From sequence record MZ189261.1: DNA of 64,000 bases. One strand, 5' to 3'. The translations under genes and the position numbers were made by a program. The notes beneath the pieces are model-generated. The model saw nothing but the letters and a program-made list of their open reading frames with translations, did not search any database and was not told where the DNA came from. This document shows, piece after piece, positions 43,782 through 64,000 of this stretch. This DNA comes from Escherichia phage S143_2. Position 1 is the stretch's first letter. Every line of letters starts with the position of its first letter.

Positions 43782-44252
43782 TTAATCATGTTTCCACACC
43801 CCATCGGTATTTGACCAAAGTCGCTGATTATCTGATCCTCGCCACAGCTTTTTAGTCGGAAGATTTTTCTCATACTTCCCATCAATAATAACATCAACAT
43901 ATTTAAGCATTTCTAGTTGTTTAATATCTTCAAACTTATATCCTGTCCACAACCAAATGCTTTTATTGGGATAAAGATTTTTTACTGTTTGAGCAATGCG
44001 ATGAATAACATCTCGGTTATCAGGATAGAGAGGGTCTCCTCCGGTTATAGTTAATCCTTCTATATAATCATTATTCAAACATTCAATCAATTGTTCTAGT
44101 GTTTCACCAGTGAATGGAATACCATTTCTAGCATTCCATGTTGATTTATTATAACACCCTTCGCATTTATGCAAACAACCCGTAACGAAAAGAACGACCC
44201 TGCAACCAGGGCCATTCACAAAATCGCAAGGATAAAATCTATCATAATTCAT
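43782..44252 (-). CDS. nrdG: anaerobic ribonucleotide reductase activating protein NrdG (radical SAM)
   Basis: CLHKCEGC (CX3CX2C), 156 aa, adjacent to nrdD. Confidence 0.9.
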   Translation of the reverse strand: MNYDRFYPCDFVNGPGCRVVLFVTGCLHKCEGCYNKSTWNARNGIPFTGETLEQLIECLNNDYIEGLTITGGDPLYPDNRDVIHRIAQTVKNLYPNKSIWLWTGYKFEDIKQLEMLKYVDVIIDGKYEKNLPTKKLWRGSDNQRLWSNTDGVWKHD

Positions 44253-46066
44253 TGGTGTTTAACCCTATGCATGATTTCTTTATTTTTGCCGAGATTAAAT
44301 CCGCGTTCGTTCGGATTTCCCAAATAACCACAAGTTCTTCTTATTGTGTTCATCTTTTTAGGGTCAGTTTCTCCGCAAACTGAACAAACAAATCCGTTTT
44401 CAGTAGGAGTCATTTCATGGGTACTTCCACATGTAAAACATTTATCTACTGGCATATTAACACCAAAATAATCTAAATGTTGTGCGGCATAATCCCATAC
44501 AGCCTCAAGACCTTTTAAGTTATTTTTCATATCAGGAAGTTCAACATAAGAAATGTGTCCGCCAGTCGCAATGAAATGATATGGGGCTTCGCGAGAAATC
44601 TTTTCAAACGGAGTGATATTTTCTTCTACTGAAACATGGAAACTATTAGTGTACCAGCCTTTATCAGTAACATCCTTTACACTTCCATATTTTTCAGTAT
44701 CAAGTTTACAGAAGCGATAACAAAGGTTTTCAGCAGGTGTAGAATACAAACTAAAAGCAAAACCGGTTCTTTCAGTCCACTGTTTAAGATGAGCATTCAT
44801 TTTAGTTAAAATTTCTTGTCCAATATCACGACCGACAAGAATATTCAATTCGTGAATACCAATGTATCCTAGGGACACTGAACTTCTACCGTTTTTAAAT
44901 AACTCAATTATATCGTCATCAGGTTTAAGACGAACCCCGAATGCACCTTCTTGGTAAAGAATAGGAGCAACAGTCGCTTTAACTCCTTTTAAGGAACTAA
45001 TTCTACACATCAAAGCTTCAAAACACAAATCCATTCGTTCATTGAACAATTCGGCAAATTTCTGTTCATTGAATTGTGTTCCAATATAAGAATCTAACGC
45101 AATGCGAGGAAGATTCAGTGTTACAACACCAAGATTATTGCGTCCATCAAGAATTTCATTACCAGTCGAATCTTTCCATACACTCAAGAAACTACGGCAA
45201 CCCATTGGAGAAACTGGAACTGAAGAACCAGTAATAGCTTTATTATTCTTAACCGAAATAATGTCAGGATACATTCTTTTGCTTGCACATTCTAACGCAA
45301 GTTGTTTAATATCATAGTTCGGATCATCTTTATAAAGATTAACACCTTCTTCAACGAACATAACAAGCTTAGGGAAAATAGGAGTTATTCCATCACGACC
45401 AAGGCCTTTAATGCGGTTTTTAAGAATTGCTTTCTGAATCATTCGTTCAGTCCAGTCGGTTCCTGTACCAAATGTAATTGTTACAAAAGGAGTCTGTCCG
45501 TTTGAACTAAAGAGAGTATTTACTTCATATTCATAAGCTTGGAATGCATCGTATACGTCTTTTTCTGTTTTAGATTGAGCATAATTCAACGCATCAGCGA
45601 TTTGCCATTTTTCTGCATCTTCAACATGTTTAGCGTATGTGCGTTTAACATAAGGAGAAAGAACTTTATCGACATTCGCAAATGTAGTTCCGCCATATTG
45701 GTGTGAAGCAACTTGTGCGGTAATTTGTGCCATAATTGCAGTAGCAACGCCAATAGATTTAGGCGTTTCAATTTGAGCATTGCCTAATTTAAATCCATTC
45801 TCAAGCATCCCCTTTAAATCGACTAAACAGCAATTAGTAAATGGAAGAGCAGGAGAATAATCAATATCATGCATGTGAATGATTCCGCTTTCATGCGCAT
45901 TCATAATAAAAGACGGGACCATATTTTTGGCAATGTGCTTAGACACAATACCAGCCATAAGGTCCCGTTGAGTTGGAAAAACACGAGAATCTTTATTAGC
46001 ATTCTCGTTTAAAAGGTCTTTATTAGTTTTATGAATTAATCCTTCAATTTCTTTTTCAATTTTCAT
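44249..46066 (-). CDS. nrdD: anaerobic ribonucleoside-triphosphate reductase NrdD (class III), uninterrupted
   Basis: 605 aa, C-terminal glycyl-radical motif RTCGYLG, Zn site CFTCGSTHE...CSVCG. Confidence 0.95.
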   Translation of the reverse strand: MKIEKEIEGLIHKTNKDLLNENANKDSRVFPTQRDLMAGIVSKHIAKNMVPSFIMNAHESGIIHMHDIDYSPALPFTNCCLVDLKGMLENGFKLGNAQIETPKSIGVATAIMAQITAQVASHQYGGTTFANVDKVLSPYVKRTYAKHVEDAEKWQIADALNYAQSKTEKDVYDAFQAYEYEVNTLFSSNGQTPFVTITFGTGTDWTERMIQKAILKNRIKGLGRDGITPIFPKLVMFVEEGVNLYKDDPNYDIKQLALECASKRMYPDIISVKNNKAITGSSVPVSPMGCRSFLSVWKDSTGNEILDGRNNLGVVTLNLPRIALDSYIGTQFNEQKFAELFNERMDLCFEALMCRISSLKGVKATVAPILYQEGAFGVRLKPDDDIIELFKNGRSSVSLGYIGIHELNILVGRDIGQEILTKMNAHLKQWTERTGFAFSLYSTPAENLCYRFCKLDTEKYGSVKDVTDKGWYTNSFHVSVEENITPFEKISREAPYHFIATGGHISYVELPDMKNNLKGLEAVWDYAAQHLDYFGVNMPVDKCFTCGSTHEMTPTENGFVCSVCGETDPKKMNTIRRTCGYLGNPNERGFNLGKNKEIMHRVKHQ

Positions 46067-58976: not shown

Positions 58977-59455
58977 TCAACAATCACAATTTCTAGTTTA
59001 GTGGAATATGTATCAAGAATTTCTTCAATGATATCCCAGTTTCCACCACCTATACCTGCACCAATTCTTGGCATATAAATTACAGGCTTTGTTATCTTAT
59101 TTTTTCCGAATTCATTTAATTCTATTATACAATTCGTTAAAGCATAGTACTCAAAATTAGGTCCCGGCTCAAACTGTGTATAAAGATTAAAGCAATAAGC
59201 TTTATGGGTCTTAAAATATTTTTCATAAACCGAATAAGTCCCGAGTTTAGACTCGTCTCCGAATTCGGTTTGAAGTTTATCGGCTTCTAGAATTTTTGGA
59301 TAAGCCTTTGCTAATTGTCCTGCCACACCGGCGCCCATTGTATGAAAACAATTACACCCATGAGCTATATTATTACCTTTAGAAAACAGGGCGACAATAT
59401 CGCCCTTGATATAGTTTTTAATCACTTGCTGCAAGTCCTCTAGTATAAGAGTCAA
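58958..59455 (-). CDS. macro-domain protein (ADP-ribose binding/hydrolase fold)
   Basis: HGCNCFHTMGAGVAG and IGAGIGGG glycine-rich loops, 165 aa. Confidence 0.55.
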   Translation of the reverse strand: MTLILEDLQQVIKNYIKGDIVALFSKGNNIAHGCNCFHTMGAGVAGQLAKAYPKILEADKLQTEFGDESKLGTYSVYEKYFKTHKAYCFNLYTQFEPGPNFEYYALTNCIIELNEFGKNKITKPVIYMPRIGAGIGGGNWDIIEEILDTYSTKLEIVIVDWEPLL

Positions 59456-59765
59456 CTAGACGGTCCACCATAGAATTGCATGCTGCCTTATCTTTAGGTT
59501 CCGCCACCGAGCATTCTAATATTTGCCATTTTTTATAGTATCTTTTAATTAAGGTAGACGCCTTGAACCTACTAGACGCCCCATCTTTTTCTCCGTCTTT
59601 ATACGCATATAACAATTTTTGTGAAAAATCTACTTTACACTCTTGACTTTTACCACAATAATCAGACGCCGTTCTGTTTGTATACTCCGTTACATCAGTA
59701 TATGTAGTATTAGCAAGAGCGCTAAATGAAACCAAGCCAACTATTAAAGCCAACATTTTGGTCAT
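59418..59765 (-). CDS. secreted protein (115 aa)
   Basis: signal peptide MTKMLALIVGLVSFSALA. Confidence 0.45.
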   Translation of the reverse strand: MTKMLALIVGLVSFSALANTTYTDVTEYTNRTASDYCGKSQECKVDFSQKLLYAYKDGEKDGASSRFKASTLIKRYYKKWQILECSVAEPKDKAACNSMVDRLVDSYTRGLAASD

Positions 59766-60304
59766 TCTTTTATTTCCAGTAGTTTATTTGATTTAAGGTA
59801 ATTAGCCTTTTCTAGGACTTCAGAAGCATATTTACTTCCAGCACTTGTCTTCCATCCCGCATTATATGAGGATATAGCTTTTCTTATATCCCCGTTATGT
59901 ATATTTAACCAATAAGAAAATTCGATATAAGCCCATCTGGCTGAATTAGACCGCTTAGATAGCATTTTCTTAATTTGGGCATCAGTCATATTATAACCAA
60001 GCTGGTTAATTCTTGCCCTCATTGTTGGTAGATAATTTTGGAACATTCCATACGCATGGTGACCTTTCTTATTTTTAAGATTAATACCGGCAGATGATTC
60101 CTGCCATAGTATTGCGGCCATTATGTATCCAAGTCCTTTCTTATGCATATTTTCATGCGTTTTAAATTTTCCATCCTTAGAAAACTGTTCCCCAAACTGA
60201 TAAGCATAATTCAAGTTATCGAGTTGGACATTACTAAAAGTATGCTCGGAGCTATGTGCTGATAACGAAAGAGCAAATAGACCAGCGAGTAGTGCTTTTC
60301 TCAT
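59762..60304 (-). CDS. soluble lytic transglycosylase-like protein with signal peptide
   Basis: SLT motifs WQESSAG and GMFQ; 180 aa. Confidence 0.6.
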   Translation of the reverse strand: MRKALLAGLFALSLSAHSSEHTFSNVQLDNLNYAYQFGEQFSKDGKFKTHENMHKKGLGYIMAAILWQESSAGINLKNKKGHHAYGMFQNYLPTMRARINQLGYNMTDAQIKKMLSKRSNSARWAYIEFSYWLNIHNGDIRKAISSYNAGWKTSAGSKYASEVLEKANYLKSNKLLEIKE

Positions 60305-60312
60305 GTTTACCT

Positions 60313-60771
60313 CTAGATTTTAATCACTGCTTTAGAAGCTTTTCCTGGTAGTCGTTTACTGTTAATAATAGCCATTCTGCATTGAAGAGTCTTCATTTTG
60401 AATGCTGGATTTTCGCGACAAACTGTAAGTCCTAACCAAAGATTTCCATCAGTTATTTCTAAACGGCCTGGACGATATTCGACACCTTCGACAAAATCTT
60501 CATCAACATCTGGACGTGCCGGCATTGATAAAAATTCTGCAACTTCTTTAACATGATTTTTTACTTTACGAAATAATTCAAAAACGTAGTTCTCATCTAT
60601 TTCTCTCTGGATAGCACGATCTAAGAGATGTTGAGAATACTTGATATGAAAGCCTGGTAGTCCAAGAGACTTTGCAGCATCTTTTATACCGGCATTTATT
60701 TTGCGGAACTCCGTTTCAAAGATTCGACGGAGTTTATTACGGCGGATAAAAACGTCAGAATTGATAGTCAT
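60313..60771 (-). CDS. regB: endoribonuclease RegB
   Basis: 152 aa, MTINSDVFIRRNKLRR start and HLLDRAIQREIDE block match RegB. Confidence 0.85.
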   Translation of the reverse strand: MTINSDVFIRRNKLRRIFETEFRKINAGIKDAAKSLGLPGFHIKYSQHLLDRAIQREIDENYVFELFRKVKNHVKEVAEFLSMPARPDVDEDFVEGVEYRPGRLEITDGNLWLGLTVCRENPAFKMKTLQCRMAIINSKRLPGKASKAVIKI

Positions 60772-60777
60772 TTTGAT

Positions 60778-60828
60778 TTCTCCTCTAGTTGACAGGTCTA
60801 TAGTAACACAACTAGAGGAGAAGTAAAC
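60778..60828 (-). promoter_or_regulatory. early promoter with perfect stem-loop
   Basis: minus-sense GTTTAC, 17 nt, TACTATAGACCTGTC; arms ttctcctctagttg / caactagaggagaa. Confidence 0.6.
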
Positions 60829-60832
60829 TACT

Positions 60833-61048
60833 TTATTGATAAAATGGAGTTAAAGCCCAAGATTCTTTAGATACCATATCGGCGAAATGCCTCATCTCTT
60901 CGATTTGGCGACGACGCTGGTCAGCATAGTCTTCTTCGCCTTCTTCCTTACAATCTTCAAGGTCTTCTTCAAGATACTTTAAGTATTCACTACAAATTTT
61001 GTTGACCTTTTCTTGAAAGTCCAATAACCCAGTAATAGTAGAAGCCAT
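60833..61048 (-). CDS. hypothetical acidic protein (71 aa)
   Basis: ORF track. Confidence 0.45.
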   Translation of the reverse strand: MASTITGLLDFQEKVNKICSEYLKYLEEDLEDCKEEGEEDYADQRRRQIEEMRHFADMVSKESWALTPFYQ

Positions 61049-61314
61049 TAGTATTTTTCCTCAGGTCGAAATACTGCACGACATGCCCACATGCTGGCTT
61101 CTTTTAGATGTTGCTTAGCATACTTAAGAGCCTGCACTGCATCCATATCTTCTTTGGTTTGTTGCTCTGATTCATTTTCTTTCAAGATATATGCTTCTTC
61201 AATCAGAGCATCAAACATCAATCCAAGACGGACTTCTGCGTCTTTAATAGCGTTCACTTTACTGATTTTATCATCGGTATGTGGCTTGTAGCCTTTGATG
61301 TCTTCAATCGACAT
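61048..61314 (-). CDS. hypothetical protein (start uncertain)
   Basis: ORF track 61048..61482 trimmed to ATG behind GAGGAA SD. Confidence 0.4.
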   Translation of the reverse strand: MSIEDIKGYKPHTDDKISKVNAIKDAEVRLGLMFDALIEEAYILKENESEQQTKEDMDAVQALKYAKQHLKEASMWACRAVFRPEEKY

Positions 61315-61528
61315 AAGGAATTTCCTCATCGGTGGCAAGGTCATATTCGACCAATTGGATAGGCTCATTAATACCATATCCGCGTACAGTGATATCGGTT
61401 GACGGATATTTTCCAGTAATATCACCCGTTCTAAATGCTTCAATGAATGATTGCTCGCCTGAGCAACTAAACCAGGCGGCAAAACATTTTAAAACATCTT
61501 CAGACCCTTCTATAATCAATTTAGCCAT
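61304..61528 (-). CDS. hypothetical protein (74 aa)
   Basis: ORF track; GAGAG SD. Confidence 0.4.
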   Translation of the reverse strand: MAKLIIEGSEDVLKCFAAWFSCSGEQSFIEAFRTGDITGKYPSTDITVRGYGINEPIQLVEYDLATDEEIPYVD

Positions 61529-61890
61529 TATAGACTCTCAGTAAAGGTACGAGCTATAACGTCGCGCTGCTGTTCTGGAGTCAGAGAGTTAAAGCGAACT
61601 GCATAACCGGATACACGGATGGTCAGCTGCGGATATTTTTCTGGATGCTTAACTGCATCTTCCAGAATTTCACGACGCAGAACGTTAACGTTCAGGTGTT
61701 GACCACCTTCAATTTTAACTTTAGGTTGATGTTCAATTTCAATTTCACGGGCATTCAAACCGTAGAAAATTTCCGGGTCTACAATAGCGTCTTCTTTAAA
61801 AGTCTTAGAGACGATAATCCGGGCTTGAGTACCGTCTTCAAAATAAATAGTGCCTTTATGTGCACCTTCAAGAATTTGATATGCTTTCAT
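61528..61890 (-). CDS. autonomous glycyl-radical cofactor (GrcA/YfiD-like)
   Basis: C-terminal glycyl-radical motif RVSGYAV; 120 aa. Confidence 0.65.
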
Positions 61891-61896
61891 ATAACC

Positions 61897-62205
61897 TCAA
61901 TTAGAAAATAAATTTATCCAAGATTTTTCTTTAATCAAAAATGGGTCGGAATTAAACGCCATTAAACTTTGAGTGATTAATCCCTTAAATGGCCCATCAA
62001 TAAATTCCATTTTGAAATGCGGAATACTAGTCATCAACCGTGCATTAGGAGCAGTACAAAGAACCTGCTGCCCTGCGAACGGACCTTTAGTCAAACGATA
62101 TCGTTTAGGTTTAAAATGGTAAATCTCATAATTTTCTACAAGAGCCCTTTTATTGCATACTGGGCTGTTATAACAATACTCAAAAACTTCAATAGTGGTC
62201 ATCAT
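61897..62205 (-). CDS. hypothetical protein
   Basis: ORF track trimmed to ATG overlapping upstream stop (ATGATGA). Confidence 0.4.
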   Translation of the reverse strand: MMTTIEVFEYCYNSPVCNKRALVENYEIYHFKPKRYRLTKGPFAGQQVLCTAPNARLMTSIPHFKMEFIDGPFKGLITQSLMAFNSDPFLIKEKSWINLFSN

Positions 62206-62741
62206 TGCATTCCAATCACAAAAAATTGAGGACGAGCAATACCGCCGATGCAATATTTGCTTTTGCAGCAGTGCTGTACTGATTTAATATGGACATTGTA
62301 AATCTTATCCATATCAGGAGCTTTAATAGGCTCGTCAATTATATACAGAATACGAGAAAGCGTTAATCCACGGAATTTAGAACCTTCATTACCAATAAAA
62401 CTACGGACAGAATCAGTAAATAAACGGAATCGAATATCATCGCTAGAATAACGAGAAAATTCTTTTTTAATGTTGCCAGCAGAAATTTTAGCATAAGCTG
62501 AAGTATTAGAAAGAACAATAACTGTTCCACCATCGAGCAGCCAATTAGCGGCAAAATTAGTTACTGCAGTTGATTTACCAGATTGTCTGCCACCATCTAA
62601 ACGAAGTGTACAGTACTGCTTGAGTACGTCTTCAAATGGTGGGGCATAACCGTTCTTACAAATTTCTTCTACTCTAGCATCAGAATGGTGTGTAAAAGCA
62701 TTCATCAGGGATAGATAAGGTCCAGTTAAAAATGTTCTCAT
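62202..62741 (-). CDS. small P-loop protein (179 aa)
   Basis: Walker A GGRQSGKST, Walker B-like ILYIIDEP. Confidence 0.5.
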   Translation of the reverse strand: MRTFLTGPYLSLMNAFTHHSDARVEEICKNGYAPPFEDVLKQYCTLRLDGGRQSGKSTAVTNFAANWLLDGGTVIVLSNTSAYAKISAGNIKKEFSRYSSDDIRFRLFTDSVRSFIGNEGSKFRGLTLSRILYIIDEPIKAPDMDKIYNVHIKSVQHCCKSKYCIGGIARPQFFVIGMQ

Positions 62742-62914
62742 TTAGTTTCTCTTAAGGTTGGGGCCATTCCGTGGCACATGTTAGGTCCTTCGACTCGCTA
62801 TGTAAACCCATTACCGCACTTGGGCTCGACCTTATTACAGGTTGGAAAAGGTACATCACTCAGAGGACTCGACGTTCATAAGGAGAGGTTGCGTTTCCCT
62901 TTATTAGGCAAGAA

Positions 62915-63244
62915 TTATACTCTAGGCTTTTGAGCTTGTTTGGTATTGGATTCCCATGCGGCTTTGGTAATTTTGTTAGCGGCATAACCAAAGGCACTAG
63001 ATAGAACACCTTTAGAGTTGAATACATCCAATCCAATAAGTACACCGGCTGTGTTAAATTTAGGAGCAAAGTACGCATTAGTTTTAGAAAGAGCTTTTTT
63101 CAATTCAGGGTCTTGAACCAAGCCATCAAAAACGCCTTTACTATTTACTTTATATGTTACTTTGGGATTTTTAGCTTCTTCGATAGCAGCTTTCTGTTCC
63201 GCAGATAATGTAACTTCAGTGATAAACTCTTGATATGTTTTCAT
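62915..63244 (-). CDS. ipII: internal protein, IPII-like
   Basis: N-terminal MKTYQEFITE capsid-targeting consensus, basic, 109 aa. Confidence 0.6.
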   Translation of the reverse strand: MKTYQEFITEVTLSAEQKAAIEEAKNPKVTYKVNSKGVFDGLVQDPELKKALSKTNAYFAPKFNTAGVLIGLDVFNSKGVLSSAFGYAANKITKAAWESNTKQAQKPRV

Positions 63245-63282
63245 ATGTTTCCTTTAAATGTAAATAGGCCTAAGTATCGGCC

Positions 63283-63861
63283 TTAATTACCACGGGCTGC
63301 ATTAGCAACGGCATAAGCGTACTGAACATTAGCGTCTTTAAACGTACCTTTAGAGGTATCTATTTCTGCCTTAAAGCCGCCTTTAGCCATAACATCGGCA
63401 AATTCTTTACGGAAGGCCATTGCATCAAGACCTTTCCATGATGATTTATGCTTGGCAAATTCAAGACCTGCGAAGTTGACAGCTTTAGCCAATTTATTAT
63501 CAATGACCCATTTACCGGCTTTAGGCACAAACTTCGGTCCTTTTTGTTTAGAGAACAGTTTTAAATTCCAGCGACGAAGATCACTGTCGGCTTTAACAAA
63601 AGCTGCGTCTAAGTTACTAGCAACAACATCTTCAATATGAGCAAATTTAAGTCCGTCAACTTCAATATTTAGATCGTTACGCCAGCGAAGTCCTTCCCAA
63701 GCGAAGGCTTTAAAATCAGAAGCCTTTGTGGCTAGATATCGTTCAATTGGAGCAGTTTTAGGGTCAAAGCCGTTTCCACCACGATAAGTCCACTCGTCCT
63801 TATTAATGCCTTGAGCTTTTCCTGCAAAGGCCTCGGCGATAAATTCTTTATACGTTTTCAT
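63283..63861 (-). CDS. ipIII: internal protein, IPIII-like
   Basis: N-terminal MKTYKEFIAEA capsid-targeting consensus, basic, 192 aa. Confidence 0.6.
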   Translation of the reverse strand: MKTYKEFIAEAFAGKAQGINKDEWTYRGGNGFDPKTAPIERYLATKASDFKAFAWEGLRWRNDLNIEVDGLKFAHIEDVVASNLDAAFVKADSDLRRWNLKLFSKQKGPKFVPKAGKWVIDNKLAKAVNFAGLEFAKHKSSWKGLDAMAFRKEFADVMAKGGFKAEIDTSKGTFKDANVQYAYAVANAARGN

Positions 63862-64000
63862 TTTTGTTCCTATTGTTTTAATTTATGTTATTCTTTAGGG
63901 AAGTTTTTAGAGTATGCGTCGTAAAGTTTATTGCCGATGCGACGGAAGACTTTAGCTGCAAAACGGTTTTCAGGGTTTTTAATCATGATTTGCATCATGT

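Follow-up and report, generated by a model that had tools for sequence, protein, structure and literature searches.

A stand-alone glycyl radical protein, encoded by a strictly virulent phage at a distance from the genes of the phage's own class III ribonucleotide reductase, raises the question of which enzyme the protein would serve, and from where its coding sequence came. The DNA analyzed, referred to as the window, is the whole stretch of 64,000 nt from Escherichia phage S143_2 (MZ189261.1).

Location and Layout of the vs.6 Gene

The ORF listing of the window contains an ATG-start ORF at 61528..61890 on the minus strand, and this confirms the protein of 120 amino acid residues given in the preliminary description. 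The gene, its parts and its neighbors are as follows.

61528..61890, minus strand: vs.6 coding sequence for 120 aa and a stop codon; product an autonomous glycyl radical cofactor of the phage GrcA/Y06I type
61711..61890, minus strand: vs.6 5′ half (codons 1–60); phage-specific N-terminal region, to which bacterial GrcA is only remotely alignable
61531..61710, minus strand: vs.6 3′ half (codons 61–120); glycyl radical domain, corresponding to the host-like tract with 96% nt identity to E. coli grcA
61597..61617, minus strand: RVSGYAV motif (residues 92–98), read directly from the sequence
61895..61898, minus strand: Shine–Dalgarno sequence GAGG, 4 nt 5′ of the vs.6 ATG and overlapping the vs.7 stop codon (TGAGGTTATATG)
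61304..61528, minus strand: vs.5, 74 aa; its ATG shares a TAATG overlap with the vs.6 stop, and RB69 vs.5 is annotated at the same position
61897..62205, minus strand: vs.7, upstream neighbor on the same strand with a 6-nt gap to vs.6; extent according to the RB69 annotation (309 nt)

In the ORF listing, vs.7 runs from a TTG start over 61897..62253, with the end of its stop codon at 61897. The stretch from vs.5 to vs.7 is a tightly packed co-directional gene array, with the ATG/stop overlap and the short gap noted above, and vs.6 within it is a stand-alone ORF with its own start, ribosome-binding site and stop, enclosed between the stop of vs.7 and the start of vs.5, as is the case for GrcA/YfiD. 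The radical glycine in the window sequence is G95 (codon GGT at 61606–61608, minus strand). The protein had been said to end in RVSGYAV; the motif is present, but the wording was loose in that 22 residues separate it from the C-terminus.

The 2-kb surroundings of the gene were 97–99% identical to RB69-like T-even phages (Mosigvirus), with Shigella phage phi25-307 closest over this region (99.0%) and RB69 at 97.1%; by this identity, the window is that of an RB69-like T-even phage. The gene order in RB69 is vs.8-vs.7-vs.6-vs.5-vs.4-(ORF117)-regB, with nrdD and nrdG about 15 kb off, and the T4 arrangement is the same. According to the RB69 and T4 annotations, vs.6 occupies a conserved T-even slot between vs.7 and vs.5, upstream of regB, which is the position of the Vs.6 family, and vs.6 was conserved in six of six T4-like genomes (Nolan et al. 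2006, PMC1524935). The label “autonomous glycyl radical cofactor GrcA” is already used for it in RB69 and T4, as in hundreds of further phage genomes. The window gene is vs.6, a T4-family gene that is already known and annotated; in itself it brings nothing new, and this RB69-like phage has the standard T-even GrcA-like spare part.

Promoter-like and terminator-like sites between 59500 and 64000 were not above chance (9 against 13.9 expected and 5 against 3.6 expected, respectively), and therefore no transcription unit was definable from the scan. In the Rfam scan of 59000–64000, no family reached its gathering score. Upstream of vs.8 lies a non-coding spacer of 173 nt (62742–62914, minus strand) with about 44% GC in a genome of 37% GC, whereas the equivalent spacer of T4 (vs.8 to denV) has only about 26 nt. 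The 173-nt spacer folded less stably than its shuffles (z = +2.1), and no structured RNA was found in it.

Assignment to the Phage Vs.6/Y06I Clade

The proposed likeness to GrcA/YfiD proved to be far beyond chance. The protein matched Pfam Gly_radical (PF01228; E 1.8e-17, 64.2 bits against a cut-off of 22.2), the NCBIfam GrcA model TIGR04365 (E 1.8e-46, residues 18–120 aligned) and the solution structure of E. coli GrcA, PDB 6owr (E 1.4e-41, residues 21–120 against 27–127). The match to pyruvate formate-lyase (PFL) in the PDB (E 1.5e-26) covered PFL residues 696–759. The match to PHROGs phrog_1209 was full length (E 3.3e-62, residues 1–120 on profile positions 1–121), as for members of the Vs.6/Y06I family, and the best protein matches in the phage database were 99.2% identical (119/120). 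A label of pyruvate formate-lyase was considered and rejected: only positions 679–744 of the 744 in that profile were matched, with 88 bits against a cut-off of 994.

When the protein was aligned to E. coli GrcA, as the preliminary description had proposed, the last 60 residues, which form the radical domain, were identical at 59 of 60 positions, the sole difference being I75 in place of T. As in GrcA, the protein thus has a glycyl radical domain of the PFL type, in which both the RVSGYAV loop and the conserved glycine are found. The glycine on which the proposal depended is conserved: G95 was invariant in all 11 aligned phage and bacterial sequences, as was the whole RVSGYAV motif, and G95 and 48 other columns of the alignment do not vary across T4-like phages, T5-like phages and bacteria. 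At residue 75 (window 61667–61669, minus strand), the window has I (ATT), and E. coli GrcA, T4 and RB69 have T (ACT).

The full-length protein scored 157.5 bits with TIGR04365 and missed the equivalog cut-off of 170 bits, because its N-terminal 60 residues are divergent; the biochemically validated T4 protein scored still less (151.1), and E. coli GrcA scored 233.9. In the N-terminal region, the HMM and PDB alignments to bacterial GrcA reach residues 18–21, and few residues are shared (Q5, K29, D34 and R48). Relative to the bacterial GrcA equivalog, the phage clade is a divergent sister, and the protein was therefore filed in the phage Vs.6/Y06I clade (phrog_1209) and not as an equivalog. By its sequence kinship (TIGR04365/IPR011140), the window protein is assigned to the phage Vs.6/Y06I clade of GrcA-like proteins.

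Comparison with T4 Vs.6, E. coli GrcA, and PflB

The mention of a T4 homolog was borne out. T4 Vs.6 (Y06I, ORF 63.1) is the positional ortholog: it likewise has 120 residues, of which 111 are identical to those of the window protein (93%), its gene has the same neighbors (vs.7 and vs.5), and it belongs to the same phrog_1209 family. Seven of the nine substitutions fall in the N-terminal half, and the glycyl radical domains differ at 2 of 60 residues. At the nucleotide level, the 5′ half of the window gene is of the Mosigvirus type and 89% identical to T4 vs.6. As far as the two sequences indicate, nothing in these differences suggests a different function. We take Y06I to be the UniProt-style name of T4 Vs.6. 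This is consistent with the T4 tk-to-e region examined, in which no GrcA-like gene other than vs.6 occurs, and it also fits the old record X04567, “ORF 63.1 (AA 1–120)”.

PMC8683613, citing Wagner et al. (2001, BBRC 285:456), describes E. coli YfiD and T4 Y06I as spare parts of about 14 kDa: the PFL activating enzyme gives them their radical, and in complex with oxygen-cleaved PFL they return that enzyme to activity; according to the same paper, these two are the only biochemically validated spare parts. Since the gene is known and its biochemical activity is known for a close ortholog, the finding of a spare part at this locus is itself already known.

Like Vs.6, E. coli GrcA (YfiD) is a stand-alone protein of about 14 kDa, and RVSGYAV lies within the nearly identical C-terminal 60 residues. 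The N-terminal 60 residues of Vs.6 are strongly diverged from those of GrcA and are seven residues shorter. The gene contexts also differ: vs.6 is carried by a lytic phage, where it is one of the small early-region genes of a polycistronic array, whereas E. coli grcA is monocistronic and adjoins ung. By BLASTP, Vs.6 matched the C-terminal glycyl radical domain of E. coli PflB (residues 697–760) with 49 of 64 residues identical (77%, E 1e-32) and with the same radical loop, and this is the piece that a spare part replaces. The rest of the 760 residues of PflB, with the barrel and the catalytic Cys418/Cys419, is absent from Vs.6, which therefore cannot be a formate-lyase.

Putative Partner Enzyme of Vs.6

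The genes of the class III ribonucleotide reductase and its activase lie in the same window.

44249..46066, minus strand: nrdD, class III ribonucleotide reductase, 605 aa, glycyl loop RRTCGYLG (context only)
43782..44252, minus strand: nrdG, activase of NrdD (context only)

The start of nrdD and the stop of vs.6 are 15.5 kb apart, in agreement with the distance of about 16 kb stated before for nrdD and nrdG. The distance poses no puzzle, because vs.6 sits in the conserved T-even slot vs.8-vs.7-vs.6-vs.5-vs.4-regB.

Vs.6 had been proposed as a spare part for phage or host enzymes, and the two halves of this proposal fared differently. For the phage enzyme, it would mean that oxygen cleaves NrdD and that Vs.6, activated by NrdG, replaces the lost NrdD C-terminus. 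Both genes share a genome and both products use a glycyl radical, installed in each case by a radical-SAM activase; a role in nucleotide metabolism was also speculated upon from the shared Pfam domain (Nolan et al. 2006, PMC1524935), and spare parts for further glycyl radical enzymes are conceivable (PMC8683613). However, BLASTP of Vs.6 against the window's own NrdD gave no similarity, the best alignment (E 2.4) lying off the glycine loop, contrary to what would be expected around the radical glycine for a spare part of NrdD. NrdD has another loop motif, RRTCGYLG, followed by a different tail, and another activase, whereas the domain of Vs.6 is nearly that of host GrcA and 77% identical to that of PflB; a vs.6-like gene is also present in T5-like phages. 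We regard a direct repair of NrdD as very unlikely. For the host enzyme, the identities to PflB and GrcA uphold the proposal.

The RVSGYAV heptapeptide is the minimal substrate of the PFL activating enzyme (PFL-AE) and was crystallized in the active site of that enzyme (PMC10665898). Given the match to PflB, the lack of a match to NrdD and this use of RVSGYAV as a PFL-AE substrate, the expected client is PflB and the expected activase is PflA; judged from sequence, host PflB with host PflA is the likely pair, and not phage NrdD with NrdG. PFL is the cell's source of formate. Formate is the reductant of class III ribonucleotide reductases of the subtype that includes T4 NrdD (PMC4493059). Because PFL makes formate and class III reductases consume it, the link between vs.6 and NrdD is probably metabolic and indirect, via formate. 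As a functional tie between vs.6 and the anaerobic reductase of the phage, this metabolic reading is more sensible than direct repair.

Proposed Role during Infection

Taken as a whole, the explanation that Vs.6 acts as an autonomous glycyl radical cofactor of about 14 kDa, a spare part for oxygen-cleaved host PFL, is in our judgment very probable. During infection, the compact co-directional vs.8-vs.7-vs.6-vs.5 array would provide for the expression of Vs.6. Host PflA, a radical SAM enzyme, would then take a hydrogen from G95 in the RVSGYAV loop and leave a stable glycyl radical, a step described in vitro, in PMC8683613, for the 93%-identical T4 protein and presumed for the window protein. 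Oxygen would cut host PflB at the G734 radical, with loss of the C-terminal 25 residues, and the activated Vs.6 would dock where the PflB radical domain was lost and bring back PFL catalysis; the same paper gives this in vitro for T4 Y06I, from which it may be extended to the window protein. T-even infection shuts off host gene expression, and therefore host grcA can no longer be induced. The phage could benefit if the conversion of pyruvate to acetyl-CoA (with ATP via Pta-AckA) and formate were kept up under microaerobic, gut-like conditions. Formate would also serve as the reductant of the phage's own class III NrdD, and with formate in this role the link to nrdD/nrdG would be metabolic and not physical. 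The phage benefit and the link from formate to NrdD are what we infer; in the searchable literature, nothing specific was found on an in vivo vs.6 phenotype or on phage grcA.

A different role for the same protein would be that of a decoy or regulator, which competes with PflB, TdcE or GrcA for PflA, or binds intact PflB, so that fermentative flux is redirected or damped. Vs.6 has the exact PflA recognition peptide; its N-terminal 60 residues are phage-specific, kept among phages and diverged from bacterial GrcA, so that a phage-specific interaction may be made through them. Yet the T4 ortholog, as described in PMC8683613, restored PFL activity and did not inhibit it, and the domain that fits PflB is almost identical to that of the host, as functional replacement would predict. 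This role is therefore considered unlikely, and repair of host PFL is retained as the preferred role.

Host-like Tract in the 3′ Half of vs.6

The host-like tract was observed in Tequatrovirus and Mosigvirus phages (window 61531–61710, minus strand; L001:20733–20912; L003:5561–5740; L090–L095). Its boundary is sharp at codon 61, where GC3 passes from about 0.2 to about 0.4.

Compared with E. coli grcA, the first 180 nt of the window vs.6 had 13–60% identity in 30-nt sliding windows and a GC3 of 0.25. From codon 61 (GAAGGT..., EGGQHLN) to the stop, by contrast, only 7 of the 183 nt in the window were not those of E. coli grcA, and GC3 was 0.37. The tract differed from E. coli grcA at five positions in RB69, three in T4 and two to six in the IMG/VR relatives, and when E. 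coli grcA was searched by blastn against the phage collection, 486 records contained a tract with an identity of 95% or more, the highest being 99.5%. For the same 180 nt, the bacterial comparisons were as follows.

E. coli grcA against Salmonella grcA: 84% nt identity
E. coli grcA against Citrobacter grcA: 93% nt identity
E. coli grcA against E. coli pflB: 78% nt identity

Among codons for the same amino acid, 57 of 59 were identical between T4 and E. coli, against 34 of 58 between E. coli and Salmonella (Fisher p = 3e-7).

The two phages T4 and RB69 were also compared with each other. Their flanking genes vs.7, vs.5, vs.4, regB and denV are 69–79% identical; within vs.6, identity was 90% in the 5′ half and 97% in the 3′ half, and synonymous identity was 42 of 53 codons in the 5′ half against 56 of 58 in the 3′ half (p = 0.006). 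The recurrent differences from E. coli lie in the last three codons (tract positions 174, 177, 178 and 180), where the phages retain the state of the distant Slopekvirus Matisse, i.e., the ancestral phage state. Such a pattern would be expected to remain if conversion had affected only the inner part of the homologous segment.

The simplest reading of these comparisons would be that E. coli grcA sequence recently replaced the 3′ half of a resident phage gene, and they suggest a recent, possibly repeated, host-to-phage gene conversion patch in the E. coli T-evens. That the 3′ half is not merely an old host domain but has been recopied repeatedly from host grcA, by homologous gene conversion during lytic infection, is put forward only tentatively and is somewhat doubtful; the alternative is a single recent capture, followed by spread between phage genera. 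In either case, vs.6 is a clean mosaic, in which a 5′ half peculiar to phages adjoins DNA nearly identical to that of the host, in a phage that is strictly virulent, and it could be used to gauge how frequently T-even phages copy host sequence. If repeated conversion is true, vs.6 would be a natural, datable reporter of ongoing DNA flow from host to virulent phage.

A 3′ half with 96–99.5% nt identity to E. coli grcA and host-like GC3 might also be expected if vs.6 were a functionless passenger, a scrap of host grcA DNA gained by recombination and awaiting loss. The state of the gene speaks against this, as the ORF is intact, of equal length in hundreds of genomes and provided with its own ribosome-binding site, and the 5′ half is an old phage-specific sequence found across Straboviridae genera and recognizable in T5-like phages. 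Moreover, in the Slopekvirus, Krischvirus, T5-like and Aeromonas phages, which lack the host-like patch, the protein domain is kept and the synonymous sites have diverged, a pattern that, in a sequence comparison, is the signature of purifying selection. A passenger is thus extremely unlikely.

vs.6 Homologs in Other Phage Lineages

By tblastn, homologs were found in 1588 phage records, 1534 of them near full length; these records and the invariant alignment columns were counted as signs of selection on the vs.6 family. The T4-like phages among them infect Escherichia, Shigella, Salmonella, Klebsiella, Yersinia, Citrobacter, Cronobacter, Enterobacter, Morganella and Aeromonas, T5-like Demerecviridae also have vs.6 homologs, and IMG/VR adds jumbo contigs of 345–357 kb with GrcA-like genes. 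In a sample of 80 bacterial grcA genes, the copies of Slopekvirus, Krischvirus, T5-like, Aeromonas and jumbo phages had only 70–84% identity to any one gene, from which it follows that the phage family is old. The jumbo-phage genes (L114, L115 and L117) and the GrcA-like genes of T5-like Demerecviridae (L006), the latter adjoining tRNA genes, are fully adapted to the low GC3 of the phage, with values of 0.08–0.17 in the jumbo contigs. The occurrence in jumbo and T5-like phages with adapted GC3 likewise indicates a family that is old and widespread in large virulent phages of Enterobacterales.

A universal tracking of the host by the 3′ half was considered and rejected, since it holds only for the E. 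coli T-evens (96–99%) and weakly for Jiaodavirus (88–89%). The Jiaodavirus 3′ half had this 88–89% nt identity to Klebsiella/Pseudocitrobacter grcA in the 80-gene sample, which is without K. pneumoniae grcA. In the copy of Klebsiella phage pKp20, a Jiaodavirus (L004:601–963), and in that of L116, GC3 rises from 0.23 (5′ half) to 0.60 (3′ half), a jump parallel to that of the E. coli T-evens, and the Jiaodavirus copy carries the LLDAVEH signature as in Klebsiella/Salmonella GrcA; both features were counted in favor of the tentative reading of repeated conversion.

In one IMG/VR contig of 19 kb and 46% GC (L118), the GrcA-like 3′ half is 91% identical to Yersinia grcA and lies in an open frame of 168 codons; it could be another host-derived patch, or bacterial DNA within a “viral” contig. 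Three further IMG/VR “viral” contigs (L155, L158 and L163) carry the 3′ end of a full-length bacterial pflB and no stand-alone spare part, and in L163 the last 180 nt match those of E. coli pflB with 100% identity; these are probably bacterial flanks in prophage calls.

Among annotated phage records, the GrcA-like protein of about 120 residues is variously labeled “ribonucleotide reductase subunit”, “acetyltransferase-related protein”, “pyruvate formate-lyase” or “2-ketobutyrate formate-lyase”; examples are KM236244 (Stitch), MT833283 (Ace), HQ665011 (AKFV33) and ON185581 (EC104). These labels are a systematic and widespread mis-annotation of the spare-part protein.
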